Source: an uncultured Desulfospira sp. (GTDB lineage: Bacteria > Desulfobacterota > Desulfobacteria > Desulfobacterales > Desulfobacteraceae). Taken from it: a stretch of 64,000 nt of DNA. Each line of letters starts with the position of its first letter. Within the stretch, counting starts at the first letter, position 1. The notes beneath the pieces are model-generated. The model did not search any database, was not told the DNA's origin, and was given only the letters and a program-made list of their open reading frames with translations. Location of the stretch: NCBI GenBank assembly GCA_963663165.1, contig OY760175.1:3872001-3936000 (forward strand), read 5' to 3'. Shown here in pieces: positions 1 through 58,030 of the stretch. The position numbers were made by a program, and so were the translations under genes.

Positions 1-152
1 TCGAATGACACTTGATCACCCTCATTGAGAGTTTTAAAACCAGTTGCATTGATGCCTGAATGATGGACAAATACATCTTTGCCACCACCTGCATGTTCAA
101 TAAATCCAAAACCTTTTGACTCGTTAAACCATTTTACGATACCGTTTGCCAT
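1..152 (-). CDS. cspA: cold-shock protein (3' end runs off the window)
   Basis: Manual translation from CAT at 150-152: [50 protein letters not shown], with the RNP1 (KGFGFI) and RNP2 (VFVH) motifs; GGAG RBS upstream. Confidence 0.93.
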
Positions 153-986
153 GTAGGCGTTCTCCTAAATAAGAATAAAAATAAATCGTCTCGATCTTAA
201 AGAATAATCACTGATTTCTCGGGGAAAATATCTAAGGAAGAAACTCAAGCACTTCAAAATAGCGCAATGTTGGTCATTTTACAGATTACTGAGGAGAAGT
301 CAAGAAAAAAAATATTATTTCAAAATAACATTTTTTTTGCAACAATTTTGAGTAGGATTAGCAGGAATTGAAGTGTTATTTGCTATATATCAAAATATTG
401 TAATTATATATAATAAATCAAATTGTTAGAAGAGTTTCAAAAGCACTTTTTAGCACTTTTTGGTTAGAATGAAACCCTAAATTACGATTAAATGAAATGG
501 CAAATCCACTACTTTATATTTAATTCAGTTGCAATTCTTACCCAATGTTGTATGCTGTTTATAAAATAAATCAGCCAGAGTAAATTCCCCCTTGGTTAGA
601 CTAAATCACTTAGGCGGTCCTCGCTACTTAATCTTTACCCTATCTTGTATATTTTTGTCTGATTTTTTATTGATTATCACAAAAGTTGATTAGCTGTTTG
701 ATTAATCATTAACACCTTAAATTTAAACCCAAATTCGAATCCTTAAGTTGTTTTGGATGTTGTTTGGTACTTTCGGATGAGATTACAGGAAAGGATTGGA
801 AATGCAAAAGAAACCTAAATCGAAGTATGGATACAGTAAGAGTGAGTTGATTGAAATTATAAATGAAATTGATGCCGACCGACATCAAATGAGAATTAGA
901 ACCGAAAATCCGAACACTCATAGGAGAAGCAATCGCCCCCATTTGGTTTTGAGAAATGAAAAATAGTCAGAATTAACTTACATACA

Positions 987-1193
987 TTGAAGAGCCCAAA
1001 TATGACTGATAGCCTTGATCAATCAACAGTTTCGTCCAATAATAATTACGAATTACCGATTGATGTTTGTGATCATATGATTTCCACATCGCTTAGAGAC
1101 TTGAGAAAAAAGTATTCGGATTTACGTATCAAGAAATCGTCTGATGCTGATATAGAAGGAAAAACGTTAAAAAAAGAAGAAGAACCAGACTGA
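987..1193 (+). CDS. small hypothetical protein
   Basis: 68-aa ORF directly upstream of and co-oriented with the methyltransferase; no recognisable motif. Confidence 0.3.
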   Translation: MKSPNMTDSLDQSTVSSNNNYELPIDVCDHMISTSLRDLRKKYSDLRIKKSSDADIEGKTLKKEEEPD

Positions 1194-1239
1194 AAACAAA
1201 CCTGGTGCTAAGTTAGAAGGAATTGAATAGGATTCGCTT

Positions 1240-1872
1240 ATGTCTGACATCCGGGTTCGCTATACCACATTGGAAGTTGGGAATATTGATATTCATATCC
1301 GTATGCTGAGGGATTTGCTTCAGTTCAGGGATAATGACGGTATTGCTAGAAGCCTTGGGATTTCTTCTGCCGCCTGGCCAATGTTCGGTGTGATCTGGCC
1401 TTCAGGTATGGTTCTGGCAAATCTGATGTTGGATTACAATGCCAAAGGGAAACGCGTTTTGGAGGTGGGGTGTGGAATCGCTTTGGCCAGTTTGGTTCTG
1501 AATGAGCGGTTAGCTGATATTACCGCAACGGACCATCACCCAGAAACAGGGGGTTTCCTCTTTTATAATGTAAGTCTGAATAACGGGAAAAACATTCCCT
1601 TTGTGCAAACTGGATGGGCTTATTCCGATATCGATCAACTTGGGACATTTGATCTTATTATCGGATCTGATCTCCTATACGAGGAACAGAATATTGAGCT
1701 TTTATCCACATTTATAGATAAGCATAGTCGACGTCAGTGCGAAGTGCTTATGGTTGATCCTGGCCGAGGATTGCATGCAAAATTTAGCAAAAAGATGGTG
1801 GGCCTTGGGTATTCGCATTCTCAAAAAAAACCAAACAATACAGACTATCCCTACAACGTGACTTATATTTAA
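1240..1872 (+). CDS. class I SAM-dependent methyltransferase (lysine/protein MTase family 16-like); native C-terminal 14 aa displaced by IS insertion
   Basis: Motifs FGVIWPSG, VLEVGCGIAL, ITATDH, DLIIGSDLLYE; the reading frame resumes after the IS at 3392-3436 (LNDGFKGWILNYTR*). Confidence 0.85.
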   Translation: MSDIRVRYTTLEVGNIDIHIRMLRDLLQFRDNDGIARSLGISSAAWPMFGVIWPSGMVLANLMLDYNAKGKRVLEVGCGIALASLVLNERLADITATDHHPETGGFLFYNVSLNNGKNIPFVQTGWAYSDIDQLGTFDLIIGSDLLYEEQNIELLSTFIDKHSRRQCEVLMVDPGRGLHAKFSKKMVGLGYSHSQKKPNNTDYPYNVTYI

Positions 1873-3387
1873 TATTATTGTTTTAGGTAACATAATCTGC
1901 TACACTCCGCAATATAACTTTTATATAGGAGGTAGAGTATGTTGCCTGAAATCCGAAAAGATGAGTACCTTTATCCTATCCCCAAATTTGATATCTGTGA
2001 AGGGGATGTAAAAAATTTTTTCAATGAACTTAAAGGGTTTCATGAAATTTTCCACGACTGTTTTCATCGTTCTGAGTCAAGGGAACATTTTTTCAGGTAT
2101 ATGGCTGGGCAATTTAGTGACCTGGAAAGAAAATCAATTGAACCCATTGCTCTGGCCGTTGAAGATGGCAATGTTAGGGCAATGCAGCGTTTTATTAGCG
2201 ATGCTGAATGGAATGACGCCAATATTATGGCCAAGTATCGTAATCTCATAAATGAAGATATGGGGACACCTGATGGCGTTCTTATTTTTGATGAAAGCGG
2301 TTTTGTTAAAAAAGGCAATGAATCCATCGGTGTTGCCAGACAATATTGCGGGAATGTCGGCAAGGTTGAAAACAGCCAAGTGGGTGTTTTTGCAGCCTAT
2401 GCTTCCCCAAAGGGCTACGGATTGATTGATAAACGACTGTTTATACCTGAACTATGGTTTAAAGACGATCACAAACAGGGAAGAAAAAAGTGCAAACTGC
2501 CTGAGTCTGTTTCGTTTAAGACAAAACCGCAATTGGCTTCCGAAATGTTGAACGAACTCGCAGAAGAAGCCATCGTGCCGTTTAAGTATGTTACCGCGGA
2601 TTCATTGTATGGCAACAGTGATGATTTTATTGAAGCTGTTGAGCAACATCCGGATTTGACCTATTTTGTAGAAGTTCCTTGTAATACTCAATGCTGGTTT
2701 AACAGACCTATTACCGTTGAAAAAACTTACAAATACAAAGGAGAGCAGCGTACAAAAATAGTTGTTGAAAAATCCTCCAAAAAGCCGGTCGATGTCAAAA
2801 CTATCGCAAAAAATATAAATGATTTTTTCTGGTACCGCCGGAAAGTATCTGAAGGTACCAAAGGACCTATTGAATATGAATTTACCAAAAGACGAGTGGT
2901 ACTTTCCAAAGGAAACACGCCTACAAAATCGGTGTGGCTGATCATGAGGCGAACCCTTGGGAAATCCCCGGATTATAAATTTTTCCTTAGCAATGCCGGG
3001 GTTAGTGCCAGATTAAAGCTTTTTGTATGGCTTAGTGGTATTCGTTGGGCAATTGAACAGTGTTTTGAGGAAACCAAGACTGAACTCGGCATGGATCATT
3101 ATGAGGTCCGTAAATACCCAGGCTGGAATCATCATATAATAACGTGCATGCTTGCACATTTTTTCTTGTGGCACCTGAAAATCAGGATGGGAAAAAAAAG
3201 CTCCATCCATTACAGTGTCGCAGCTTAGAATACTAATGGAGGTGGTTTTGCCATTGAGACCTTGTCGTTTTCATACCGTTATGCAATCGGTTTTGTATTA
3301 CCAAAGGCGCAATCACGCTGCATATCTATCGCATCGAAAAAGGAGGCTTCTTGATAGAAAGAATACGCACTAAGTTACGTTGTAGGG
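1849..3387 (+). mobile_element. IS701-family insertion sequence, complete
   Basis: 17-bp terminal inverted repeats CCCTACAACGTGACTTA (1849-1865) and TAAGTTACGTTGTAGGG (3371-3387), one mismatch; 4-bp target duplication CTAT (1845-1848, 3388-3391). Confidence 0.92.
1939..3373 (+). CDS. IS701-family DDE transposase (main ORF ends 3228; C-terminal tail in the +1 frame after an A8 run, ending 3373)
   Basis: Motifs LIFDESGFVKKG..SIGVARQYCG.GK.ENSQVGV, TADSLYG, RWAIEQCFEE.KTELGMDHYEVR; +1-frame tail APSITVSQLRIL...RRNHAAYLSHRKRR. Confidence 0.92.
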
Positions 3388-3944
3388 CTATTTGAATGAT
3401 GGATTTAAAGGCTGGATTCTTAACTATACCAGATAGCCAAAATTAAGATAATTCACGTGTATCAATTTTGATTTTGACAGGCAGCGCTTAACAATCAAAT
3501 CCTCCAACTTCTTTCTTCTTTGTTTCTGATCATCAAGGCAGAGTGTACCCTTTCCGAAATGAGTGAAGCCAAAGTCCGCAATAATGGTGTCCCCTGATCC
3601 CCAATCTGAATTCAGATACCATATCTTGTGGTCCGGTTCAAATCTCCAGATTACATTTTATATATTAAACTCCTGACTCTGATGGAATCTCTGAAAAAGA
3701 GACCCATACGTCCATGATCTGTCGTTTGGAACACGGATTCTGAAGCAACAATATATTATTAACCTTGGCCATCTCCGGCAAAATTAAATTTTATAATCCG
3801 TATCCCATTCAACATCGACATCAGACTTAACGCCAGTTTCAACCGGTTTCCCAGAGCCGAATGCATAAGAAGTATTGACGTCATGTTCAACATCCCCTAT
3901 ATATTTGTGCATTATGAAAATAATTTATGAAATTGGAGATATGT

Positions 3945-9087: not shown

Positions 9088-12000
9088 CTAACAGGCAAAA
9101 TCCACCATAGCCATAATCTGGGACTCCTCAAACCCGGCAAGCCCGGCGGCACCGGAGCGGCAGGAAGACACGCACAGGCCGCATCCCTTGCAAAGCACCG
9201 GATTGACGGCGGCCTTGCCGGCAAACCGTCCCTCTTCGATAAAGTAAGGGGCATTGTAGGGACAGACCGCCACGCAGACCCCGCAGGAACTGCACAGGTT
9301 GACATCCACCGATGCGGTGTTGCCAAGGGTCTTGATTTCGGTTTTGGCAAACAGCCGGCACACACCAGCAGCGGCGGCCTGGGCCTGGGCAATGGATTCG
9401 TCAATGGGCTTGGGATAATGGGCAAGGCCGGCCAGGAATACCCCGTCCACGGCAAAGTTGGACGGTGCCAGCTTAACATGGGCTTCGGCAAAGAACCCGT
9501 CACTGTCCATGGGCACCTTGAACATTTTGGCCAGTTCCTCGTCCCTTGTGGAAACCACGGCCGATGCCAGGATCAGAAGATCGGTTTCAATCTCTATGGG
9601 CTGTCCCAGGACATGGTCTGTGACCTGAACGGCTAAGGTGTTCCCTTTATCTGAAACCACCGGCTTATCCGATACATTGTACCGAATAAAGATCACCCCA
9701 AGCTCCCGGGCCTTCTGGTATAGCAGCTCTTTTTCCCCGTAGGTCCGGATATCCCGGTACAGGATATATACGTCCATGTCCGGGGTTTTCTCCTTGAGAT
9801 GGATGGCCGAGGAAATGGAATGGGAACAGCAGACCCTGGAGCAGTATGGCCGGTCCGGTTCTCTTGACCCCACACACTGGATAAAGACCGCCGTCTCAGC
9901 CTTTTCAACCAGATCGGTCTTGTCCATGATCTGCCGGTCAAGCTCCAGGCTGGTCACCACCCGGCTGTCCTGGCCGTAAAGGTACTCGGCAGGTTTGTAC
10001 TCCTCACCGCCCACGGCAATAATGGCGGCCCCGTGACGGATCTTGGCCGGTGCAGGCCCGTCAATGGTGGTATCAAAGTTGCCCACAAAGCCTTGAACTT
10101 CATCAAGGACACTGGACAGGTGAACCGTGATCCCGGAATGGTCCGTCACCTTCTGACACAGGTCGGCCAGTTCTTTTTGAACATCCACACCCGTGGCGGT
10201 CTGATATATATTGAGGGCGTTGCCGCCCAGGCGGTCTGATTTTTCCACCAGGTCCACTTTATACCCCTGGTCGGCCAGGGACAGGGCCGAGGCCATGCCG
10301 GTGATGCCGCCGCCCACTACCAAAAGGCCCTTGTCAATGGAGAGGCTCTCCTCTTTCAGGGGCTTAAACAGCGCCACCTTGGCCACGGCCATGGCCACAG
10401 AGTCCATGGCCTTCTGGGTGGCTTTTCCCGGGGTGTCCTTGTGGACCCAGGAGTTATGGTTTCGAATATTGACCATCTCAAACAGGTACTTGTTGATGCC
10501 GGCGGCGGCCAGGGTTTCCTGGAACAGCGGGTCATGGGTCCGGGGACTGCACGCTGCCACAATCACCCGGTTCAATCCCTTTTCACGAATGAGTGCTGCA
10601 ATCTTGTCCTGGGTATCCTGGGAACAGGAGTAAAGGTTGTTGTCGGCAAACTCCACAAAGGGAAGGGTGGCCGCAAAATCCCGCACTGCCGGGACATCCA
10701 CCACAGACCCGATGTTAATGCCGCAGTGACAGACAAATACACCGATCCGGGGCACATCCGCAGATACATCCCGTTCTTCGGGCGGGACTATGGTCTTGAC
10801 CAGGGTCCCCCGGCTTTCGGCAATAGCGGATCCGGCAGACAGGGCAGCGGCACCGGCTTCAATGACCGACTGGGGGATATCCTTGGGTCCCTGGAAAGCG
10901 CCGCACACATAAATGCCGTCCCTGGATGTGGCCGTGGGGGTAAAACTCAATGTTTTACAGAACCCCTGTTCGGTCAGGTCAATGCCGATTTTCCCGGCCA
11001 GGGCACGGGTTTCTTCATGGATCTCCATGCCTACGGAGAGGACCACCAGGTCGAACTGTTCCTGGTCCAGGGTCTGGTTTTGCTCGTCAAAATAGGTAAT
11101 GGTCTGGTTGGGCTGGCCCGGGTTCTGGTGAACCGAATGGACCCGGCACCGGACAAACTTGATGCCGTGCTTTTCTTTTGCCTCGTTATAGCAGGCTTCA
11201 AACCCTTTGCCGTGGGTTCTCATGTCCATGTAAAAAATGGTACAGTCCAGGGACGGATCATGTTCCTTGGCAATAATGGCCTGCTTGATGGCATACATAC
11301 AGCAAACTGAAGAACAGTGGCGGTTATCACATTTGTTCATGTCCCTTGAGCCCACGCACTGGAGCCAGGCAATGGCCTTGGGCTCGGCATGGTCGGACAG
11401 TCTTATCACATGCCCCATATGGGGGCCTGAAGCCGATAAAAGCCGTTCAAATTCCAGGGAGGTGACCACGTCCGGCGTGGTGTTCCAGCCGTAGACCTGA
11501 GAATTCCCGGGATGATAGGGCTTGAACCCCGGGGCCAGGATAACGGCACCCGCGTTCAGGGTAAAGGTCTTGTCCCGGTCCTGGTAGTTGACGGCCCGGG
11601 CCGGACAGACATTTTCGCAGATACCGCACCGTTCCATGTTCAGCTGGATACACTGGGCGGGATCAATACAGAACTTTAAGGGAACCGCCTGGGCATAGGG
11701 AACATAAATGGCCTTTCGTTTGGCCAGCCCCTCATTGTACATATCGATCACTGTTTTGGGGCATTTTTCCGCGCAGAACCCGCAGGCCACACATTTGTCC
11801 GGGTCCACGTACCGGGCTTTCTGGAAAATCTCAACTTGAAAATTTCCCTTTTCACCTTTGATATCCTTGATATCGGCCAGGGTGACCAGCTCAATGTTGA
11901 TGTGCCGTCCTACTTCAACCAGCTTGGGGGACATGATACACATGGAACAGTCATTGGTCGGAAAGGTCTTGTCCAGTTGGGCCATGACCCCGCCAATGGC

Positions 12001-12117: not shown

Positions 12118-12852
12118 GGGATACTCCTTTGATAATTGGTGAGTTGGGGGGAATTAAGGAAGACAGGGGCAGATAGAGGGCAGCACCCATTGCCCAGGTG
12201 ATACCGGCACTGAAACCGTCGCCCGGGAGCAATGGTTCCAACTGGTCCCTGATGCCGATAGCGTTACAAACATTTTTCAGGGCATTTTGCATAAGCCCGT
12301 TTCCTCTTAAATTTACCGCATGAAACAGCAACCACATGTTACTTTATGATAAGGGGAAACCGGCTGGTTTCTAATGGCTGTCGGCAGGCGATTTCCCCGT
12401 TATATCTTGCACCAGCCGGTCACGGGCGGTGCGTGCTAAGCTGCCTCAGTGTCTGTTGGGAAAATCAGCCATAAGCGCCTTTTTCTAAAAGCTTTTGTTA
12501 TGTTGCGGCCCTGAAAATAAGCCGTTTAAACTTTAAAAAATTATAAGAAATCAATAGGTTTGGCAAATTGATAATTCTTATGCCCTCTTATTTGCGACAT
12601 CGAAATATTCAATTTGTTTGATTTGTGACGGAGGGGTGGACGCATTTAATATCAAATGCGTTGTTTAACCCGTGTGGCAGGGGCAAATTAAAGCAGTAAA
12701 AGAAGAATTGATTTCAGCATTCTTTGAATAACATTTTTAATAGCATCATGGGAAAGCCGGCCAATAATTTGGGCATCCCAACTGCTTTTCAAGGATGAAT
12801 GTACCGGTGTCCCATCTCATCAGGTTGGGGTGTGGAAAGCATGAATTATTTT

Positions 12853-13707
12853 TCAGTTGGCTGATTTTATATCTTTAATCAGTGTTTTTATCTCAGAGGA
12901 GATCACATTCTGTTCTTTTATCATTTTTGCGAGGTTATATCGGTGGTCATCTTTGAGTTCATATTTTGATTGAAGTCTTAAAATCAATCGTTTGCCGTCA
13001 ATAATGCGGCTAAGACGCCAATATTGATCAAGGTTGTTGTTGCCATCGCAAAAGGCTAATAATCGCGTAGATACACTTTCGAAGTCGCATTCAACATGGC
13101 GTTTATCCAGATGTTCAATGCATTTGGCTTTTATTTGTGCCGGATTGTTCTCTCCGGAAACAAAGTGTGGGACCAACGCTTTTTCACCGGCCATATGCAA
13201 GCAAATATTGGTGGCTGTCACAGGGACAAGATTTTGAGATTGTTGTAAAAGCTGATCTGAAAGCAAATCGTTATCTATACCATCCGGAGAATATTTCCCG
13301 TAATCGGTAAGGAGGGCAAAAATAACTTTTGGATTTAAGAGGTAGTTTTCAATTTCCCATCGGCCAAGGGGTCTGATGTAATCCCCAAAAGGCCTGCTCC
13401 TCTGATAAATTCGATCATCATTTTCCCAAAACAAATCCCACGCATTTTCACGCATCAAGGCATCTCGATCAACGATTCCAAATGAGGGGATCCCCATGGA
13501 ACGATCTTTATCCACAAATCCCACCACTGTTGCACATCCCCCGGACCCGCCATTTTTACTGGATAAAAATTCAATGAATTCACCTTCGTCAAAAAACCAG
13601 CGCTGGAAAATTGCCAGATCAGTTTTAGATTCAAGATAAATCAGTTTGCGTCCGGAATACTTGCCGTCAACCGTATCAGATTTATTTAATGACTTGAATG
13701 TCGCCAT
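12853..13707 (-). CDS. TOPRIM (OLD/DUF4435, AriB-like) putative nuclease
   Basis: IYLESKTD (conserved Glu), GGC..V, GIVDRD (DxD), WEIENYLL, IDGK; directly follows an ABC ATPase. Confidence 0.72.
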   Translation of the reverse strand: MATFKSLNKSDTVDGKYSGRKLIYLESKTDLAIFQRWFFDEGEFIEFLSSKNGGSGGCATVVGFVDKDRSMGIPSFGIVDRDALMRENAWDLFWENDDRIYQRSRPFGDYIRPLGRWEIENYLLNPKVIFALLTDYGKYSPDGIDNDLLSDQLLQQSQNLVPVTATNICLHMAGEKALVPHFVSGENNPAQIKAKCIEHLDKRHVECDFESVSTRLLAFCDGNNNLDQYWRLSRIIDGKRLILRLQSKYELKDDHRYNLAKMIKEQNVISSEIKTLIKDIKSAN

Positions 13708-13722
13708 GAAAAATTTCCGATC

Positions 13723-14871
13723 TTATAAATTTTCTTCAATTATGTGTCCGCCTTTTCTCAATCCGGCTTCTTTTGTTTCAAACTCAAAGCCTTTAAGAAT
13801 TTCCCTTGAATGAGTCGTCGCAATAACATGTATTCCAGGCGTTTCAACCACAATTTGTTTTAGAATGTTCAAAATCCGATGCTGCCATTTGGGATGAAGA
13901 TGAACATCCACTTCATCAATCACAATCCAGGTATTCCGGGTCATATGTGCCCCGATCCGAAGCATCATCTGGGCCAGGCTTTTTTCTCCACTGCTCAGCC
14001 GGTCCAGCCTGTGCCTGGACCCTTTATTTGAAATCACGGCCTGTGGCGGATCCTTTTCAACCTCCTCAAGACGCTTATGGGTCCCTTTAAATACCCACTG
14101 GTTGACGTCTTCTATGGCCCTCTGGAAACGATCTTCGTCAATCCACTTGAGCCAGATCAGAAGATTATCAAGGGAATGGTTCCATTCTGCCCTTGAGAGA
14201 AACGGCTTAACCGGACGGTATCTCCAATCTTCCGGTGCTACAATTGCCCTGTCATAGTCTTCAATTTTAGGGATATCCCTGTATGCAGAAAAGTAGAGCA
14301 AAGTCGGTTCGGCAACCCCGCTGTCTCCAAATCCGTCAGGAGGAACGGACATCTGGTTTTGAATGGACCCCAGAAGGTCCTGAATAAAGGTATCACTGGC
14401 TCCGATTTTTTCCATTCGCCCGGAGAAATGGCGCCTGTAGCCGAAGCGATTCCAGGACCCTGCACCGGCAGATTTTAATTCAGAGTCTGTCCAGGCCCGG
14501 ATTGAAGCGGTGTCTTTGGGGCCTGCAATCAGGGACAGAACGGCACTTTGCTGTTCCTGGTTCTGATAGAACCTTACCAAAATATCAAGCTGAGCCCGGG
14601 AGGGGTCTTTTCCCAACATCTCAACCCGGTCAAGGTCTTCATGCCCGAAGGATGTCGGATTCTCCTTTTCAAGCATCCCCATCAGGGTCACCATTACATC
14701 CAGTAATGTCGTCTTTCCCTGCCCGTTTTCGGAAATAAGGAGAAACATATTGCAGGGATCTCCATTTCCATCTGTAAAATCCAGCTCAAACCTATCCCTG
14801 AAAGGGCCGATATTTTCCACCCACATGCGGATGGGCTCAAATCCCTGAATGCTAAAATCACCTGCAGGCAT
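13723..14871 (-). CDS. ABC-type ATPase (AAA_15/AAA_21, AriA-like)
   Basis: Walker A SENGQGKT, signature LSSGEK, Walker B/D-loop IVIDEVDVHLHPKWQ, H-loop ATTHS; no transmembrane segments apparent. Confidence 0.88.
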   Translation of the reverse strand: MPAGDFSIQGFEPIRMWVENIGPFRDRFELDFTDGNGDPCNMFLLISENGQGKTTLLDVMVTLMGMLEKENPTSFGHEDLDRVEMLGKDPSRAQLDILVRFYQNQEQQSAVLSLIAGPKDTASIRAWTDSELKSAGAGSWNRFGYRRHFSGRMEKIGASDTFIQDLLGSIQNQMSVPPDGFGDSGVAEPTLLYFSAYRDIPKIEDYDRAIVAPEDWRYRPVKPFLSRAEWNHSLDNLLIWLKWIDEDRFQRAIEDVNQWVFKGTHKRLEEVEKDPPQAVISNKGSRHRLDRLSSGEKSLAQMMLRIGAHMTRNTWIVIDEVDVHLHPKWQHRILNILKQIVVETPGIHVIATTHSREILKGFEFETKEAGLRKGGHIIEENL

Positions 14872-14873
14872 CT

Positions 14874-16364
14874 TTATTTCCTTTTTAAAGTTCTGACCGC
14901 CTCTTCAATATGGCTTTGTTTTACATGATAGCCATGAACCCTGACAGGTTTTTGGCCTGATAATTTGACAATCATATCTCCATCTCCGGTCAAACCTTCA
15001 GCTCCGGTTTCATCCAGAATAATTTTAGACTCAGAGGCTTTTTGGACGGTTAAGGCAATTCTTGATGGGATATTTGAACGCAACAACCCGGTAAAGGTTT
15101 TGGCATCCGGGCGCTGTGTGGCTAAAACCATATGAATTCCTGAAGATCGCGCTTTCTGGGCCAGAAAAACCAATTGGGTTTCCGTATCCGGACTTCGAAG
15201 TACCAAATCTGCCAATTCATCAACGAAAACAATAATTCTTGGCAAGCTTTGAGCCCCTGAAGCATGATACTCATCTATATTTCTGACTTTTTGGGCGGCA
15301 AACAGCTTTTCACGTTTTTCCATTTCCATGCAAAGCTCCCCCAACGTTTTGGTCACATCTTCGGGTTCTGAAATTATGGGCTGGTAGAGAAAATTTTCCA
15401 GGTCATTATAATCGTTAAATTCCACCCGCTTGGCATCAATAAAACAAAACCGCAGTGACTGAGGGGTGTTTGTTGTCAGCAAAGAGAGAATAAGCGCATG
15501 AATGCATATACTTTTACCACTGCCCGTAGTTCCACCGATCAAAAGATGGGGGGTCTTTGCCAGATCAAAAATAAAAGGATCTCCCATAATATCCACACCT
15601 GGACAGACCGGCAAGTGCCCCTTTCCTACATCCGGAGTCAAACCTGAAAAATCGATCTCAATTTTTTTCCAGGAAGTTTTTTTACGGGGAATATCAATTC
15701 CGATCAGTCTTGGCTCATTTGTTCTGCTAAGAACCAGAGACCCGGTATCTTTTCCCAAGGAAAACGCCAATTTATCAAGATTTTTTTCAAGCCGTTCAAG
15801 GTCCTGAAGGTTCTCCAGATACACAAGATAACGGGACAGCCTTACCCCTTCTATCTCATTTTGGATTTTTCCGGTAACACCGATCTCAGGCAAGACAGAT
15901 GAAAGGTCAGCGGTATCATCCGGTTCCACCGATGTCACCGGCCTGTCCGGTCCGTCGGAAAATAAATCATAAGCCAGAAAAGAATGAAAATCATGCCCAT
16001 CCTTCCAGGATGTGCGGATTTCATGAAGCCCCCTTCGAACGTGGCGCTGCATATATCTCCGGAAAAGCTCCGGATCAGCAAACAGGTCTTCTTCATAATA
16101 GGCACTTAGAACAGCACAGAAGACATCGGTATAATCATCCTCCTGCCGCTCCCCGGTCAATTGTTCAAAACTGTATTCACTGCCCCCTTCTGACCGGTCT
16201 TCAATTTTCTCCCATCCCTGTTCCGGATATTCGGGGATTTTAAGGGAAAGGGCCAGGGCCAGCCTCAATGATACCCATTTGGGAAGGCCTTTAACCCCTA
16301 ACCCTTTGGAGATGATCTGGTCGATGATTTTTTCATCTGAATGGCCGGTATATATTTTTGCCAT
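14874..16364 (-). CDS. DndE-like N-terminal domain fused to an FtsK/SpoIIIE DNA translocase motor
   Basis: N-terminus RLALALSL..GSEY.FEQLTGE..HVRRGL resembles DndE; C-terminus DLAKTPHLLIGGTTGSGKS, IDAKRVEF, IIVFVDELADL, KARSSGIHMVLATQRP, IILDETGAEGLTGDGDM is an FtsK motor. Confidence 0.85.
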   Translation of the reverse strand: MAKIYTGHSDEKIIDQIISKGLGVKGLPKWVSLRLALALSLKIPEYPEQGWEKIEDRSEGGSEYSFEQLTGERQEDDYTDVFCAVLSAYYEEDLFADPELFRRYMQRHVRRGLHEIRTSWKDGHDFHSFLAYDLFSDGPDRPVTSVEPDDTADLSSVLPEIGVTGKIQNEIEGVRLSRYLVYLENLQDLERLEKNLDKLAFSLGKDTGSLVLSRTNEPRLIGIDIPRKKTSWKKIEIDFSGLTPDVGKGHLPVCPGVDIMGDPFIFDLAKTPHLLIGGTTGSGKSICIHALILSLLTTNTPQSLRFCFIDAKRVEFNDYNDLENFLYQPIISEPEDVTKTLGELCMEMEKREKLFAAQKVRNIDEYHASGAQSLPRIIVFVDELADLVLRSPDTETQLVFLAQKARSSGIHMVLATQRPDAKTFTGLLRSNIPSRIALTVQKASESKIILDETGAEGLTGDGDMIVKLSGQKPVRVHGYHVKQSHIEEAVRTLKRK

Positions 16365-16374
16365 GAAAATTCCT

Positions 16375-18392
16375 TTAGCTGTCCGGGTACATTTGCTTCA
16401 GTCTGGGTTCAGTGGACTCTCCGTCCCAATTCTCCAGTTGGTATTCTTTGTATATGTGTGGGCAGAGCAGCCTGTATTTTTCCTCATCCAGTTCAGAGTC
16501 CGTGGGCAAAAGGATGACCTGCTTTCCCACGCTTGGGTAATAATTTTTCAGCAAGCTTCTTTGATTTACCGCATCCAGCCTTCCTAAAGGAGTATCTATG
16601 ACAACCGGAACCTCCTTTCTTGAAACTGTTTTTAAGGCCCATAATAGGGCCGTAGCAACCAGTTGTTTATTGCCCGAAGAAAGGTTGGTCCGTCCAATCT
16701 CATCCCCGGAATCATCCAGATAGGTTAATTCAAAGGTGTCCGATACCGATATCTTTTTGACCTGGGGGAGATTTGAGATCAATATCTTTGTGTACTTATC
16801 CAAAGTCTCCTCTACATCCCCCCTTTTTAATATTTTCAGATCCTGTTTATACTGGTTGAAAAATTTGCGAAGACCTTTTGCCAGATCAACCTTTTTCCTG
16901 GTCCTTTTGCTCAGTTCAACCTGTTTCTCCTGGTCCCGGATCTCTTTTTTTAATTGCTGGATATGTCTTTGTCTGATTTCTTTCTCAGTCTGGGATTTTT
17001 GAATTTCCTTTTTTATTCCTCCCCGCTCTTCGATTTGCCTTTTAGTTCCTCTGAAAGAAAATTAATTCGTTCCCGCTCTTCATCGGTCAGCCCTGCTGCC
17101 TCGGAAATATCGAAATCAATGCCTGCTATTTCCCGATTAAAGTCATGAATCTGTGCCAGGGTTCGTTTGATCTCCTCCCTGGCCCTGTTTAAGCCCCTAT
17201 ACTGAATAAATTGTTCATGCAATTGTTTGGCCGTTTTGAGGTCCAGTGATACCACGCCTGAATCCATATCCGGTATCCTTGCATCGATCAGGCCAATAAG
17301 ACGTTTTTTCAAGAATCGTTTCTGGCCGGGTTCCAGCTCAGGATTTGGATAGGGCGGCTCATCCAGCAGTCCCGGTACCAGGCTCTTTTTCAGGCTTTCC
17401 AATATTTCGGCCGCTTCACCCAGTTTGCTGCCGGCTGCTTTTTCAATATATTTTTCAGCTTTTTCTACAAGGCCGGGATTGGCCAGCAACGGGGATTCTT
17501 TGCGGATCAGATCCGCAAACAGGGCCTCCCTTTTTTCTTTTTCCGCGACGGCTATCTCACGGGAAGTATTCAAACGCCCAATGTCCTGACGATTCCGGAG
17601 ATATTCCAGTTTTTTCAGTTCATTTTCAATCTCATTGACCTCATGGTCCAGATCCATTTTCTGGTCTTCCCAATCCCGTTGTTTTTCATTTTCCTCTGCA
17701 ATGGCCAATTCATCTTTCTTTAACTGGTCCTGGGTTTCATATAGAATTCGTCTTTTTTCTTCCTCCATAGCATCCTGCTGCCACTCTTTTACCACTGTTT
17801 TAAGCTCTGAACGAAGGTAGTCAATGGGGGCAATATCCAAAAGCCTTTCCATATCCGTTTTAAAGGATTCTTGATCTGTGGATTCCACAAGACGTTCAAT
17901 CTGTTCACTGTCAAAAAAGAAAAACGGAATATAAGCCGGTGGCAGGCGTTGTTCAATAAATTCCCTGGCGTCTTTATCCTGAAGCCGGTTTCCATTATGG
18001 ATAATTTCCAATTCCCCGAAAAAATTTTTGCCATTCAGATCCCATGACCGTTCAGCCAAAACCACTGAACCGGCTTCGGTCCATTCAATGGACACACTGC
18101 ACCGGGTATCCCCCCTCTGAACAGCCTTCCGGTTCACGATTCCCAGCCAGGTTCTACCGTCTCCAATGACAAACCGTTTTTGACCCAGAGGCCGGCCGGT
18201 AATATCCACGGCCAAAGATTCCGTGGTACCGGCAAACAGCAGTTTGAGACTGCGGATAAAGCTGGTTTTCCCGTATCCGTTTCTCCCTGAAATTAAAACG
18301 ATATTTGCCTGTTCACTTCCTCCTGTCAGGTCAAATTCAACCGGGCCAAAATAGGAAAATAGATTGTTGAGGATGATTTTATTGAATTTCAT
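16375..18392 (-). pseudogene. dndD: DNA sulfur modification ATPase DndD (SMC-like), split by a single frameshift between 17013 and 17061
   Basis: 5' ORF 17013-18392: NLFSYFG..FDL, SGRNGYGKTS, FFFFDSEQI, coiled coil; the -1 frame is open from about 17061 to 16375 and carries LSSGNKQL, VVIDTPLGRLD, QVILLPTDSE; joined product about 672 aa. Confidence 0.85.
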
Positions 18393-19723
18393 GCGTCAGC
18401 TGTCTCTTGCTGGACCACGGATCGTTCCAGCATTTTTTTTATTTCCCGGGTCAATTGCTTTTTGGCCCCGTAGGTATTCAACGTGGGAAGCTGCTCTTTA
18501 ACCATGTCTAAAAGACTTCGAATCAATTCAGGCGGTAATTCCTCGTAACTTGGCAGCAGTTCATCCAAGAGCCGGTCTTCCTCTGAAGTGCGAAAACTCT
18601 GTTTCATTTCAGATACCTCCCTGTTATATTGAGCGGCAATTTTCAGTGCTGAATCCTGAAAATCAATTTCTTTGGTCCATGTGTCATGTATATAAGCGAT
18701 TTCCATATCAGAAATCAATTGTCGTCCCATCTGCTGTTCTATTTCCAGCAAGTAGTTAAAGATTTCTTTACGGGTATCAAATGTGAAAGGCCCTATGCCT
18801 TTTGAACCGTCCCGTCTGAAAGGCATCCTCCTGCCAGGTTCTTCCCGGATCTGCTTGATCCAGTCCCTGAATTCATTAAGCGGCTTCATCCAGGCTTCCC
18901 CGGTTTGGATAAAACCCTGCATGGAAATATCTTTTTTTACAACCGTACATGTCCAGCAGCCAAACCGGCTTCCACCACAGGAAGGGGACAGCATGTCAAA
19001 AATCATATGACATTCATTCCCTGTAGCTTTGCTGTAGAGTGAGATCAGGTCGTTATGATTGCTTCCCCATGGCGATGGCCTGGTTTGTAAATATTCCCAT
19101 ACCTGATCCGTAGTCCACTCCGCGATCGGAGTTGAAACCAGTGCATTGGAGATTTCATGATGTGGATTTAGCCCCCGATAGCTTTTTTCCCGCCCATTCA
19201 TTCGATTCCGCCGCTCGGAACTCTCATCCATCCGGGTCCCCAAGAGAAGGATAACGCTTCCTTTTTCTCTTGTTATTCTTTCAATTACCTTACGGGTAGG
19301 CCGGATTTTAAGACTGCTGGTACACCAGCGAAACCATCTTGTGGGTGCCGGATACCCCTTTCCAATAAGTTTGGCCCAGAAGGTGGATTCAACTTCCGGT
19401 ACCACGACTTTTACCTGAATGGGCAGCAATCGTTTCTCAACATCCTTTTTAATACAATCAATGGTTTCATGTAAATAAGCTGCAATGTTGGGTGGTTCCA
19501 CACCAGTATCGGAATATATGATATAGACAGGCTTTAGCTTTGAAGGGTCCGTGTCTATCAACATGTGATACACCAATTCCAAAAGGAGTGTGGAATCTTT
19601 GCCCCCTGAAAAGGCAACAACCCATGGGCGCATGTCTTTTTTATATTCTTTTGACAGTTGCTGAATAGTATTTTGGGCAATCGACCCTATGCGGTCTATG
19701 GATATTAAATTTGAATTCATCAT
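18389..19723 (-). CDS. dndC: DNA phosphorothioation sulfurtransferase DndC (PAPS reductase family)
   Basis: PWVVAFSGGKDST, SDTGVE.P, IGKGYPAP..FRWCT..LKI.P, LGTR..ES..R, SCGGSRFGCWTCTVV. Confidence 0.93.
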   Translation of the reverse strand: MMNSNLISIDRIGSIAQNTIQQLSKEYKKDMRPWVVAFSGGKDSTLLLELVYHMLIDTDPSKLKPVYIIYSDTGVEPPNIAAYLHETIDCIKKDVEKRLLPIQVKVVVPEVESTFWAKLIGKGYPAPTRWFRWCTSSLKIRPTRKVIERITREKGSVILLLGTRMDESSERRNRMNGREKSYRGLNPHHEISNALVSTPIAEWTTDQVWEYLQTRPSPWGSNHNDLISLYSKATGNECHMIFDMLSPSCGGSRFGCWTCTVVKKDISMQGFIQTGEAWMKPLNEFRDWIKQIREEPGRRMPFRRDGSKGIGPFTFDTRKEIFNYLLEIEQQMGRQLISDMEIAYIHDTWTKEIDFQDSALKIAAQYNREVSEMKQSFRTSEEDRLLDELLPSYEELPPELIRSLLDMVKEQLPTLNTYGAKKQLTREIKKMLERSVVQQETADA

Positions 19724-20021
19724 AATTATGGTTAGGTGGTAATTGTTTTAAATTTTAAATGTATACACATTTTTCCAGGTCATGTCTGCATGTTTTCATT
19801 TAAAAAAGTTGTGTTTGGCAATTAAAGTTTTAGTTTTCTTGCTCGTTGGCGGCAGAAAAGAGGCGGAAAAATTAAAATGAAATAGATAAAAAGTGCCTTA
19901 AGGCCGGAACCACCTATTCTCGGTTTTCTACAGATTCAGAGGGTAACGTCAAAATGCTTTGTGACAGTTTTTCATGCCCGGATTGACAAGAAACAGGGTC
20001 TTGGCCTACAACTGTTCAATC

Positions 20022-21353
20022 ATGAATTCCGGACCAGACAATGTGGAGTACCAAACCCTGATGGAATGCCTGCCCGAAGGCGTTTTTGCCATCAATACCA
20101 AATGGCAGGTGGCTTTTTTTAACCGGGCTGCTGAAGACATTACCGGATATAAACGGCATGAAGTGCTGGGCCGGTACTGCCATGAGGTGTTTCAATCGGA
20201 TCTTTGCGAGCTGGGCTGTCCCTTTAAGGCGGTTCTTGAAACCGGCCGGGAGGCTGAACCCCAGGCGGTCCGGATTTTGTCCAGGGACAGGGTCCTGAAA
20301 ACCATTCTGGTGAATGCCGGGGCGTTGCGGGATGATTCAGGGGCCATGGCCGGTGCGGTCGGAACCTTCAGGACTTTGGGCAGGGAGGAGCAGTCGTCGA
20401 CCACACCAAGGGTGTCCCAGGCCACTTCCCGGATTATCGGGAAAAGCCCGGCCATCCGCCGGCTGTTCAGCATTCTCGGGGATGTCTGTGCCAGTCAGGC
20501 CAATGTGTTTCTCACCGGGGAGAGCGGGACCGGAAAGGAGTTGTTTGCCCGGACCATTCACCAGAACTCTGCCCGTGCCAAACATCCGTTTATGGCCGTT
20601 AACTGCTCTGCCCTGGCCGAGACCCTGCTGGAGTCGGAATTGTTCGGCCATGAAAGATTTGCCTTTACCGGTGCGGTTAAGGCCAAGGCCGGCCGGTTTG
20701 AACTGGTGAAACAGGGCACCCTGTTCCTGGATGAAATCGGGGACCTTAAACCCGGACTTCAGGTTAAACTGCTCCGGGTGCTGGAACAAAGGGAATTTGA
20801 ACGGGTGGGCGGCATCTGTCCTATCCCTCTTGAGGCCCGGATTATCTGCGCCACCAACCGGGATCTGTCCCGGGCACTGGCGGACGGCTCCTTTAGAAAG
20901 GACTTTTATTACCGGTTACAGACGGTTCCCCTGGTGATCCCGCCCCTTCGCCGGCGCAAAGAGGACATCCCCCTGCTGGTCGATTTTTTTATCCGGACCT
21001 TCAATGTTTCATTTAAAAAAAAGGTGAAAGGGGTGGCCCCGGAGGTAATGACATTTTTTGCCCAATACCACTGGCCCGGCAATGTAAGGGAGCTTGAACG
21101 GACCATTGAACATGCCTTTGTGTTTGTAAAGAGCGATGTGATTGGTCTGGAAAACCTGCCCTCCCGTGATATGTTCAGCCCGGAACCGGCCCCAAGGCCG
21201 GCAGCGGACAGCCGTAAAATCGAACTGACCATGGACGAAATTTCCAGTGCCCTTGAGCAGGCCGGCGGCAGAAAAGAAAAAGCGGCTGAACTTCTCGGCA
21301 TCAGCCGGACATCCCTGTGGCGGAAAATAAAGGCCTTTCCTCCTCTCGAGTAG
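20022..21353 (+). CDS. PAS-domain sigma-54-dependent transcriptional activator
   Basis: PAS, GESGTGKE, LLESELFGHE, FAFTGA, TLFLDEIG, WPGNVREL, C-terminal HTH; an alternative start lies at 19974. Confidence 0.92.
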   Translation: MNSGPDNVEYQTLMECLPEGVFAINTKWQVAFFNRAAEDITGYKRHEVLGRYCHEVFQSDLCELGCPFKAVLETGREAEPQAVRILSRDRVLKTILVNAGALRDDSGAMAGAVGTFRTLGREEQSSTTPRVSQATSRIIGKSPAIRRLFSILGDVCASQANVFLTGESGTGKELFARTIHQNSARAKHPFMAVNCSALAETLLESELFGHERFAFTGAVKAKAGRFELVKQGTLFLDEIGDLKPGLQVKLLRVLEQREFERVGGICPIPLEARIICATNRDLSRALADGSFRKDFYYRLQTVPLVIPPLRRRKEDIPLLVDFFIRTFNVSFKKKVKGVAPEVMTFFAQYHWPGNVRELERTIEHAFVFVKSDVIGLENLPSRDMFSPEPAPRPAADSRKIELTMDEISSALEQAGGRKEKAAELLGISRTSLWRKIKAFPPLE

Positions 21354-56021: not shown

Positions 56022-57338
56022 ATGACATCAATTACCGATTACTTAACCAGAGGCCCTTGTTCATCAAAAGAACTCCAACGGGCTGTTGGGTTAAGCCAAA
56101 GCTCTATTTCCAGGGCACTTCAGCAACTGGGGGATTCGATTGTCTCTGTGCAGGAAGGCCGGACCGTTAAATATGCCGCCACATGCAATGCCTTTGGGGT
56201 GAATGACAAAATCCCTTTGAGTGTCATAAATGAAAATGGGCAATGTCGGCGGATTGCCTATGTCCGGCCGTTGAACTGCGGTTATTTTTATGTGGATCCC
56301 GCCCATCCCCCGGATTTCCCTTTGGCATTGTCAGGGGAAAACCGCCTCGGGCTATACAAAGACCTCCCTTATTTCCTTTTTGATTTAAGGCCCCAGGGAT
56401 TTCTTGGCCGGCAAATAGCCAAAACAATCGGTGCGTATAATTCTGAGTTTCCGCCGGACCCTCAAAAGTGGAACACGAATCATATCGGCCGGTATCTGAT
56501 TTTCAACGGCGAGGACACCCCGGGCAATATCATATTGGGGGAACAGCTGTTTTCAAGCCCGAGGCAACCTCCTGTCCCTGTTTCGCTGTCCCAATACCCC
56601 CAATGGGCCGAAAAAATCCTGAAAGGGGAACACCCGGGATCTTCCGCCGGCGGGGAACAGCCCAAATTCGCAGTCTTTAACAAAGAATCATTTTCCCATG
56701 TCATTGTTAAATTTTCCCCTCAGGGGGAGAACGAGATCGCCCAAAGATGGAAAGATATCCTGATAACCGAATATTATACCTGTGCTGTTCTTTCCAAAAA
56801 TGGTTACCCGGCCCCTGATTTACAGCTCATGGAAATGGAAGGCCGGTTGTTTCTGCAGTCCCGGCGATTTGACCGGCACGGGGAATTTGGCCGGTCCTCC
56901 ATGCTCAGCCTGGATATTCTGGACAGGGAATTTTCAGGAATTGGAAATGATTGGGCCAGGGTGGCAGGGGAACTGTTCAATCAGGGATGGGTGAACCGGC
57001 AGGACATGGAGACGGTCAAAGAGCTGTCCTGTTTCGGCAGACTTATCCATAATACGGATATGCACCTGGGGAATCTGAGTTTTGCCATGGAACAGGACTC
57101 TTTTAGGTTGCTGCCAATATATGATATGTGTGCCATGGGATTTGCCCCCCAAAGCGGAGAACTCCTGCCGTTTGAGTTCCAATGCACCAGGGATTTTAAC
57201 GAAAACTTAACAACCGGCCAAATGGATAAGGTTCAAAAAATGGCATTTGATTTCTGGGAAGCCCTTGCCCTTGATCACAGAATTTCAAATGGGTTTAAAA
57301 ATTATCTGAATCAAGGCAATCCTGTAAACGGCGGTTGA
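56022..57338 (+). CDS. yjjJ: HipA-like kinase toxin with N-terminal HTH (YjjJ family)
   Basis: N-terminal HTH (GLSQSSISRAL), DLRPQGFLGR, GSSAGGEQPKF, VIVKFS, RFDR, FG.LI.NTDMHLGN, P.YDM. Confidence 0.87.
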   Translation: MTSITDYLTRGPCSSKELQRAVGLSQSSISRALQQLGDSIVSVQEGRTVKYAATCNAFGVNDKIPLSVINENGQCRRIAYVRPLNCGYFYVDPAHPPDFPLALSGENRLGLYKDLPYFLFDLRPQGFLGRQIAKTIGAYNSEFPPDPQKWNTNHIGRYLIFNGEDTPGNIILGEQLFSSPRQPPVPVSLSQYPQWAEKILKGEHPGSSAGGEQPKFAVFNKESFSHVIVKFSPQGENEIAQRWKDILITEYYTCAVLSKNGYPAPDLQLMEMEGRLFLQSRRFDRHGEFGRSSMLSLDILDREFSGIGNDWARVAGELFNQGWVNRQDMETVKELSCFGRLIHNTDMHLGNLSFAMEQDSFRLLPIYDMCAMGFAPQSGELLPFEFQCTRDFNENLTTGQMDKVQKMAFDFWEALALDHRISNGFKNYLNQGNPVNGG

Positions 57339-57369
57339 TCTGAACCCGAATTCCGGTGACGGTTCAGGG

Positions 57370-57729
57370 CTATGTGTTCAGTTCAAATACAACCCTTAAC
57401 GCCTGGTTAATTTCCTGGACTTTGTCCATTGACAGTTTCCCCCTGATTTTGACCAGTCGATGGCGATGATCTATTGGACGTGTCTGAAGGCAATCGGCTA
57501 TGGATTTTTTAGACAGGCCATTATCGGATGAGGGATAGATTTCAACATTGGTTGTGACCCGGGCTTTTTTCGCGCTCCATTCGGTCACCGGAACAACCTG
57601 GACAACCGGAACCCTTGCATTATAAATATCGTTGGTCGCCACCACACACGGCCTGATTTTTCCGGTTTCCGAACCTTTTGTGGGATCAAGGTTGACGTCA
57701 ATAATCATGCCTCTTTTAAGCACCATCAT
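57370..57729 (-). CDS. mazF: PemK/MazF-family endoribonuclease toxin
   Basis: KRG.I..VNLDP..GSE.GK.RP.VV..ND, VP.T, GL.K.S....Q.R.ID..RL. Confidence 0.9.
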   Translation of the reverse strand: MMVLKRGMIIDVNLDPTKGSETGKIRPCVVATNDIYNARVPVVQVVPVTEWSAKKARVTTNVEIYPSSDNGLSKKSIADCLQTRPIDHRHRLVKIRGKLSMDKVQEINQALRVVFELNT

Positions 57730-57959
57730 TCCGGCCATCCGTTCAATGCCGTTTCTGTCAGGTCTTTTAAATCATCGTCCTCAGAATAGATTTCAGAATA
57801 CAACTCAGCAGATTTTTTAAGGCGTTCAAGTTCCATTTCCTTTTTGAAAAGCTCTATGGCCTCACGAAGCATGGCGCTTTTGTCCTTAAATCCATAGGCC
57901 TTAAAATCATTCAAAAACTGAACTTGAGCTTCCTCAACACTGAATTTCGCCTGTAACAT
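57726..57959 (-). CDS. putative antitoxin (RHH-like)
   Basis: 77 aa, DKSAMLREAI helix, acidic tail, ATGA overlap with the toxin gene. Confidence 0.78.
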   Translation of the reverse strand: MLQAKFSVEEAQVQFLNDFKAYGFKDKSAMLREAIELFKKEMELERLKKSAELYSEIYSEDDDLKDLTETALNGWPE

Positions 57960-58030
57960 TTGGCCCCCTTTCAGGCCCCTATATTGGGACCTTATTCACA
58001 GGCATATTATAGGGGCTGATATGCTGAGAG

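Follow-up and report, generated by a model that had tools for sequence, protein, structure and literature searches.

A cassette of five genes in an uncultured Desulfospira sp. appears, from sequence and structural models, to be a variant of the Dnd DNA phosphorothioation system in which a PtuA-like ATPase and an AriB-like nuclease stand in place of DndFGH, which would make it a hybrid of Dnd and PARIS and not a member of PARIS itself. The cassette lies at 12853..19723 of the window, the 64,000-nucleotide stretch analysed here (contig OY760175.1, positions 3,872,001 to 3,936,000), and comprises six open reading frames (ORFs), all on the minus strand, that represent five genes: dndC, dndD, dndE fused to ftsK, an ABC ATPase gene and a TOPRIM nuclease gene. 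In this order the genes are spaced by -4 (an ATGA overlap), 10, 2 and 15 bp, and the cassette is AT-rich, with a GC fraction of 0.447, compared with 0.54 and 0.55 on its two sides and a genome-wide value of 0.50. It is bordered by hdrA/mvhD-type genes on one side and by two sigma-54 activators on the other. An initial annotation of the window had given this layout, including the five co-oriented genes, their coordinates, the overlap and gaps and the position between the hdrA operon and the sigma-54 regulators, and had named the three Dnd genes; all of this is confirmed, the identities by matches to TIGR03183 (dndC), TIGR03185 and PADLOC models (dndD), and PF08870 with PF01580 (dndE/ftsK). The best explanation of the locus, as read from sequence, is a self-contained, horizontally moved unit with a predicted anti-phage function.

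The five genes form one conserved unit, as the initial annotation had proposed. In the forward direction, a motif taken from the DndE domain alone yielded 83 metagenome matches, which together with loci L001 and L002 gave 85 mapped loci; the motif selects one DndE clade, so the linkage counts describe that clade, and they are restricted to loci with sufficient flanks. The arrangement dndE/ftsK-ATPase-TOPRIM is present in 50 of the 53 loci having at least 4 kb downstream, and all five genes occur in order in 40 of the 44 loci with both flanks. Clustering at 95% identity leaves these figures at 42/44 and 33/36, respectively, and clustering at 60% identity at 13/14 and 11/13. The exceptions to the order are a decayed locus (L145), one with an IS701-family transposase in the dndC position (L085) and two rearranged loci (L091 and L158). 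Identity to the window spans 25–59% and locus GC 0.29–0.67, named homologues come from Desulfobacterales, Magnetococcales, gamma- and betaproteobacteria, and the flanking genes vary, the biggest family having 4 members among 107 flanking ORFs.

In the reverse direction, starting from the nuclease, 400 other genomes of the window's taxonomic order contain 10 strong matches: six follow dndD-dndE/ftsK-ATPase behind a whole or broken dndC, three are orphan ATPase-nuclease pairs and one (L207) is a remnant. The nuclease is also matched in 10 of the 56 genomes in the class of G804, the genome of L002; the nine new matches there plus G806 add nine loci with dndD-dndE/ftsK upstream and one orphan. Collectively, 15 of 20 nuclease-anchored loci have dndD-dndE/ftsK upstream, four are orphan pairs and one is a remnant. 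Weak nuclease matches behave differently, none of the 10 examined out of 12 lying near dnd genes. As a control, 22 DndE matches were collected from the same 401 genomes, 15 of which are of other types (10 long fusions, three of them checked as HerA-type, and five unfused); none of these 15 carries the ATPase-TOPRIM pair, some of the loci having short flanks. The forward linkage (42/44 clusters), the reverse linkage (15/20) and the control (0/15) rule out a chance neighbourhood, and the gene trees described below are congruent. The system is rare: the nuclease profile matched none of 400 other genomes in a phylum-wide draw, none of 401 genomes in the class of G805 (a search run without a positive control) and no plasmid, and the DndE motif was absent from viral contigs. 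An alignment-based search of genomes for related loci returned 80 matches, of which 78 were housekeeping-type FtsK and two were true, and a single-sequence query returned none.

Several loci depart from the common architecture. A rearranged form, found at L091:7947-12690, L158, L119 and L136, consists of a DndC tail (67 amino acids, aa), dndD, ATPase, TOPRIM nuclease and an unfused dndE, with no FtsK and no catalytic dndC adjacent; L158 lacks the nuclease and continues with a further AAA_21 plus DUF4276 pair. Tandem Dnd cores occur at L109:4847-15640, where dndC-dndD-dndE is followed by a small gene, dndD, dndE/ftsK and a divergent ATPase-TOPRIM pair. L088:166-5800 holds a stand-alone DndE, two proteins of 624 and 446 aa that match no Pfam or NCBIfam family, and a distant AAA ATPase plus DUF4435 pair. 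The cassette sits directly behind ahcY in L093 and L130 (ahcY is also upstream in L094 and L122) and ahead of metF in L093 and L130, which suggests that ahcY/metF is a favoured insertion site.

Trees of the five genes were compared over 30 complete loci; L109, whose called C and D ORFs came from a second cluster, was dropped, and split-gene loci were excluded. Tree-distance correlations (rho) between effector and Dnd genes are 0.64–0.86, compared with 0.68–0.82 among the Dnd genes themselves, and each pair of trees shares 12–14 well-supported splits and conflicts at 0–2. The five trees are congruent, a sequence-level result that speaks for co-transfer, not contact, and the correlations include shared kinship. 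When the orphan pairs are placed with FastTree, the dnd-linked ATPases form one group (support 0.79), as do the nucleases except that of L109 (0.90), and the orphans L201, L205 and L208 nest at three places within the dnd-linked group; the orphan pairs therefore look like losses of the dnd genes.

Natural knock-outs complement this picture. An ISKra4 transposase interrupts dndC in L202 (G738, a single-contig genome 97% complete), and L203 (G670) has a truncated dndC; neither genome has a second copy, and in both of them dndD, dndE/ftsK and the two effector genes are complete and their active sites preserved. G452, G744 and G491 (91, 98 and 80% complete) carry the pair with no match to dndC or dndE, and the catalytic residues of the orphan pairs L201, L205 and L208 are intact. 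Since intact pairs persist where dndC is broken or the dnd genes are gone, the pair probably does not act as a free nuclease on unmarked DNA. Such pairs are compatible with a nuclease that needs the Dnd complex for targeting, which DndC may supply. Two of the loci have further peculiarities. At L201:1928-5173 (G452) the ATPase shares one 1081-aa frame with a type III-D CRISPR RAMP protein (TIGR03986), with csx19 before it and the TOPRIM gene after it; the frame may be a real fusion or may reflect a lost stop codon. L207 keeps dndC and a dndD remnant, and where most of dndD and dndE/ftsK has been lost it holds a gene (9410-10342) for an HNH protein resembling phosphorothioate (PT)-binding restriction enzymes (NF045808, below the cut-off).

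DndC (18389..19723, 444 aa) is a PAPS-reductase-like sulfurtransferase that scores 334 bits against TIGR03183, above the cut-off of 290. It has the PP-loop SGGKDS and Cys134, Cys238, Cys249, Cys256 and Cys259; with the cysteines that PMC12193691 lists for E. coli B7A DndC as the reference, all five and SGGKDS are kept, and across the family the PP-loop and the five cysteines are kept in 29–31 of 31 homologues. The specificity-loop triplet, T-R-W in the window and TRW, SRW or NRW in 26 of the 31, differs from each of the three published patterns, which leaves the PT motif unpredictable. A short DndC of 370–397 aa occurs in eight of 28 complete loci (L002, L099, L121, L128, L138, L140, L141 and L148), and in L002 the C-terminal tail is a separate 71-aa gene.

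The coiled-coil ABC ATPase gene dndD (16375..18392) appears in the assembly as two ORFs, one of 459 aa and a C-terminal piece. Contigs from four of four sequencing runs, representing at most three samples and two studies and including one run that is possibly the source of the window DNA, hold one additional T behind 17033, which restores a single 672-aa frame comparable with homologues of roughly 680 aa. The frameshift is an assembly slip. A pseudogene or programmed frameshift is ruled out, as the reads contain the base and the 7 broken genes among 62 homologues are interrupted at differing places. The window cassette is thus intact in the sequencing data and testable as it stands. Both DndD pieces match TIGR03185, below its cut-off, and the PbeC and DndD models of PADLOC (its evidence being hidden Markov model matches), with the PbeC models outscoring the DndD models. 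No CxC or CxxC zinc hook is present in residues 150–520 of 30 DndD homologues.

The third gene (14874..16364, 496 aa) encodes a DndE domain (PF08870, E 2e-8) fused to a soluble FtsK motor (PF01580, E 9e-48). Walker A and TQRP are found in 29 of 29 FtsK domains and the gamma-domain motif in none, while Walker B reads EE in 23 of the 29 and DE in the window. Two distinct DndE fusions exist in the sample, a HerA type and the chromosome-FtsK type of the window, and the ATPase-TOPRIM pair occurs only with the latter. The window motor matches the cellular FtsK of its own genome (E 3e-62) and barely aligns to the HerA-type fusions (E 8e-4 or worse); the HerA-type motor is related to a DndH motor (E 8e-30), whereas the window motor does not match the one DndH tested (L236). 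Two chromosome-type FtsK genes, separated by about 100 kb (G000:C1:6157503 and 6257086), are present in the genome itself, with motors 69% identical. A second cassette, more frequent in the order and seen at L222-L224 and L226-L230, combines dndD with a 508-aa DndE-HerA fusion and has no dndC; it lies near N6-methylase/HsdS genes and, at some loci, also a macro-domain gene.

The fourth gene (13723..14871, 382 aa) encodes an ABC ATPase of the PtuA/AriA family that matches AAA_21/AAA_15 and retains intact Walker A, Q-loop, LSSGE, Walker B and H-loop motifs. Its predicted structure, with a predicted local distance difference test score (pLDDT) of 92.6, superposes on retron/Septu PtuA with Z 23.1 (root-mean-square deviation, rmsd, 3.5; 302 residues aligned) and on AriA with Z 16.8 (rmsd 4.0; 251 aligned), placing the modelled ATPase structurally nearer to PtuA than to AriA. 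The fifth gene (12853..13707, 284 aa) encodes a putative AriB-like TOPRIM nuclease of the DUF4435 family, identified from its model, fold matches and invariant columns. By sequence the protein has no Pfam or NCBIfam match, no significant match in the PDB (which likewise offers no DndC structure) and weak matches to the PADLOC AriAB/AriB models (E about 1e-5); its family comprises 190 relatives among 50%-identity representatives. The best Foldseek matches of the model (pLDDT 93.7) are PARIS AriB 8ux9_A and 8v46_D (E 1e-4), and structural superposition gives Z 15.1 with AriB (rmsd 3.9; 238 aligned), the next family being the OLD nucleases at Z 8.4. The acidic residues E26, D30, D80, D82 and E118/E120 include four (E26, D30, D82 and E120) that are invariant in the family alignment, and the metal ligands reported for AriB are E26, D30, D88, E90 and E122 (PMC11464382). 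The modelled protein thus shares the fold of PARIS AriB and retains the metal ligands. Conversely, the AriB arginines R28 and R31, which contact AriA, are not kept in 43 dnd-group nucleases, position 28 being mostly acidic or polar (K in the window) and position 31 variable.

These results bear on two statements of the initial annotation. Its proposal of an AriA-AriB architecture stands for the nuclease, which is AriB-like in fold and catalytic residues, and is not supported for the partner, whose modelled fold is PtuA-like rather than AriA-like; with this, and with the AriA-binding arginines lost, there is no ground for presuming that Ocr is sensed. Its description of the pair as AAA_15/21 plus DUF4435 fits the fourth gene and, on the side of the nuclease, the family, in which 59 of 118 aligned members match DUF4435, but not the window protein itself.

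Compared with DndABCDE and IscS-DndBCDE systems, the cassette shares the DndC PP-loop and five cysteines, the DndD ABC ATPase, the DndE domain and the gene order, and likewise has its sulfur donor elsewhere in the genome. It differs from Dnd systems with DndFGH, DndI or PbeABCD in having no dndB, dndFGH, dndI-like or pbeA neighbour and in the fusion of DndE to FtsK, and from the PbeABCD/CxC clade in lacking both the CxC hook and an HKD-helicase PbeA neighbour. DndE is also joined to a P-loop motor next to dndD in Riemerella DndEi (via PMC6435447) and in the 'clade 3' DndE-HerA/FtsK fusions that passages of PMC10853773 (Rakesh, Aravind and Krishnan 2024) place beside a DndD-related ATPase; going by the wording of that paper, 'clade 3' is probably the HerA type. 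The nucleases near Dnd genes named in those passages are HKD, HNH, REase, URI, HEPN and PIN, TOPRIM not being among them, and neither 'PARIS' nor 'DUF4435' occurs in the main text.

On the effector side, PARIS has the same order of ABC ATPase followed by DUF4435-family TOPRIM protein, with the AriB fold, E26, D30 and downstream acidic ligands in common, whereas the cassette has an ATPase of 382 rather than 464 aa that is nearer PtuA by fold, lacks R28/R31 and lies inside a Dnd operon. Septu and retron I-A PtuAB provide the best structural match of the ATPase (Z 20–23) and a precedent for an effector held by a partner complex; unlike them, the cassette has a TOPRIM rather than an HNH nuclease and no reverse transcriptase. 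MADS (mad1-8) also couples a DNA-marking enzyme to an ATPase-TOPRIM pair, and its mad8 model matches the FtsK domain (E 2e-30; SspH, 3e-53), but the cassette employs sulfur chemistry instead of adenine methylation, has five genes, shows weak MAD3 similarity and contains no N6 methylase, HsdS or MAD6-8. BREX loci with OLD-ABC/TOPRIM backups (PMC12839542) similarly hold a PARIS-like pair inside a modification system; as described there, that pair is auxiliary beside a primary effector, whereas the pair of the cassette is near-fixed and its only nuclease. No description of the five-gene unit was found in the literature searched, which was covered mostly through listings, with the supplement of PMC10853773 and one key paper outside that scope. 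What is new is the combination: the individual parts have all been published, as has, for BREX, the theme of a modification system with PARIS-like backups.

Our leading, still tentative, reading is that the pair acts, by analogy with its relatives, as a triggered and probably tRNA-cutting abortive effector gated by a Dnd scanning complex. DndC, DndD and the DndE domain would phosphorothioate host DNA with sulfur from a host IscS-type desulfurase, a step for which family membership and catalytic residues argue strongly. DndE would tether the FtsK motor to DndD, creating a complex that moves along DNA, and the ABC ATPase would keep the TOPRIM nuclease inactive and coupled to this complex. A phage could then disturb the complex, either through binding of a DNA mimic or inhibitor or when the motor meets unmarked or replicating phage DNA, upon which the released nuclease would cut host tRNA like AriB and abort the infection. 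This reading is favoured because such behaviour is reported for the nearest relatives of solved structure on either side of the pair: AriB cuts tRNA after release from AriA (PMC11464382), PtuAB of retron Eco7 is kept in check by the retron complex and set free by a phage nuclease (PMC12640716), and retron PtuAB has a tRNA target (PMC12673091). A phage antagonist of Dnd systems has been described (PMC12345140), and the FtsK motor may serve modification, as reported for DndEi (PMC6435447). The linkage counts, the match between effector and Dnd trees and the position of the pair between dndD and a stand-alone dndE in L091 are counted in its favour, and the intact catalytic residues beside broken dndC or in orphan pairs are as expected of an auto-inhibited module. 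Further still, and more doubtfully, the phosphorothioation machine may be a sensor of abortive infection, in which a DndD-DndE-FtsK translocase gates a PtuA-like ATPase and an AriB-like tRNase, the sulfur mark controls shut-off of host translation rather than cutting of foreign DNA, and the effector lends itself to connection with other surveillance complexes, L201 being an example.

Several observations weigh against the gated abortive effector. Four of the 20 nuclease-anchored loci are orphan pairs without dnd genes, and in G664 dndC-dndD-dndE/ftsK reaches a contig end, the assembly containing nothing that matches the ATPase or the nuclease, so the coupling between Dnd and effector genes is not absolute. 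Tree congruence is equally expected from plain co-transfer, the AriB contacts R28 and R31 are not kept in the aligned sequences, and EE at Walker B may leave the motor weak in many members. Moreover, the TOPRIM protein is the sole nuclease of the cassette, which would leave a pure backup without a primary restriction arm to support, and there is a DNA-cutting precedent in MAD3-MAD4, which is reported to cleave DNA (PMC13662399).

These last two points belong equally to an alternative that is possible, if not probable, namely PT-dependent restriction in the manner of MADS or DndFGH, in which DndCDE-FtsK would read the motif and recruit the ATPase-TOPRIM pair to cut unmarked invading DNA while the cell survives. 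The pair is the only nuclease of a modification cassette without DndFGH, MADS couples its DNA-marking enzyme to the DNA-cutting ATPase-TOPRIM pair MAD3-4 (PMC13662399), the window FtsK matches mad8 and SspH of PADLOC, and DndFGH is reported to have translocase and nickase activity (PMC11662687). Loss of dndC need not be lethal under such a scheme, since DndC is proposed as the motif reader (PMC12193691) and its loss could remove targeting rather than kill; the MADS methylase gene is likewise reported as deletable (bioRxiv 10.1101/2023.03.30.534895). The nuclease is, however, much closer to the tRNA-cutting AriB, at Z 15.1, than to the OLD and Gabija DNases, at Z 8.4 or less among the matches listed, where MAD4 did not appear; domain-model scans recognised no PT-reading domain in the fourth and fifth genes, and the tree shows at least three separate origins of intact orphan pairs.

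The orphans could instead indicate an autonomous PARIS-like pair, captured once as a second line that senses phage proteins without any Dnd protein. Their nuclease frames are intact in all 4/20 cases, the sister groups are stand-alone pairs or fusions with 0/10 near dnd genes, and PARIS-like pairs are reported to have been recruited into BREX loci as backups (PMC12839542). This is nevertheless unlikely given the near-fixed order and tight spacing across 29–67% GC and 25–54% ATPase identity, the nesting of the orphans as apparent losses within the dnd-linked group, the lack of any other neighbour family beyond 4 of 107 flanking ORFs, and the consistent absence of the pair from other DndE types (0/15). 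A role outside defence, as an addiction module keeping a selfish PT cassette in the genome, is very improbable; patchy spread, exchange at one site and the toxin-antitoxin behaviour of ATPase-nuclease pairs would fit it, but both proteins have anti-phage effectors as their closest relatives of solved structure, and it is the dnd genes that are lost while the pair stays.

The cassette lies in a variable segment whose extent, 12736..19963, follows from comparison with a genome of the same genus, G001, in which homology stops near 12735 and restarts near 19964, with 3.3 kb of unrelated genes between the same flanks (hdrA and a sigma-54 activator); on this ground the cassette is exchangeable cargo. 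In sequencing runs X1, X4 and X6, contig depth over the cassette (window 12500-20200) is far below that of the flank contigs, and at 12656 the flank contigs depart into different sequence, which hints weakly at other cargo at this site in related strains. No att-like repeats were seen at the locus, and promoter, terminator and repeat scans of it gave nothing usable above chance level. Elsewhere in the window, positions 1-3900 are AT-rich with a DDE transposase (1939-3228) and a methyltransferase, and positions 56022-59563 hold a small toxin-antitoxin cluster of HipA-like, PemK/MazF-like and Fic-domain genes.

The initial annotation had also stated that the window has no dndA, dndB, dndFGH, pbe or ssp gene. 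The statement is borne out for the dnd families by a Pfam scan of the 47 other window ORFs, and is narrower for pbe and ssp, at which no scan of the flanks was aimed. No dndF, dndG or dndH lies in the window or next to the cassette. Genome-wide, DndB is absent, with a positive control that matched; the DndG and DndH models found nothing, a weak negative as their positive controls also gave no match, and DndF was not included in that search. Two full-length cysteine desulfurases elsewhere in the genome, both below the DndA cut-off, indicate by sequence that a cysteine desulfurase for the DndA or IscS role is available. No DndB, desulfurase or HKD-helicase occurs among the 68 flanking ORFs scanned, no HNH or reverse transcriptase gene lies in the cassette, and GAAC, GTTC, GATC and GGCC are not avoided in the genome.

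Most Dnd modification loci lack DndFGH, and the role of the sulfur mark there is described as an open question in PMC10853773. The cassette offers a compact, clonable five-gene answer whose sole nuclease resembles AriB. Through it, marking of the DNA backbone would be linked to a PARIS/PtuA-type effector, and it would put to the test whether effectors of this class serve a modification machine as restriction arm or stand guard over it. Its PT sequence motif may also prove to be new, as the specificity loop of DndC departs from all three published patterns. Together, DNA sulfur-marking and an ATPase-nuclease pair look like a new, predicted form of bacterial immunity.

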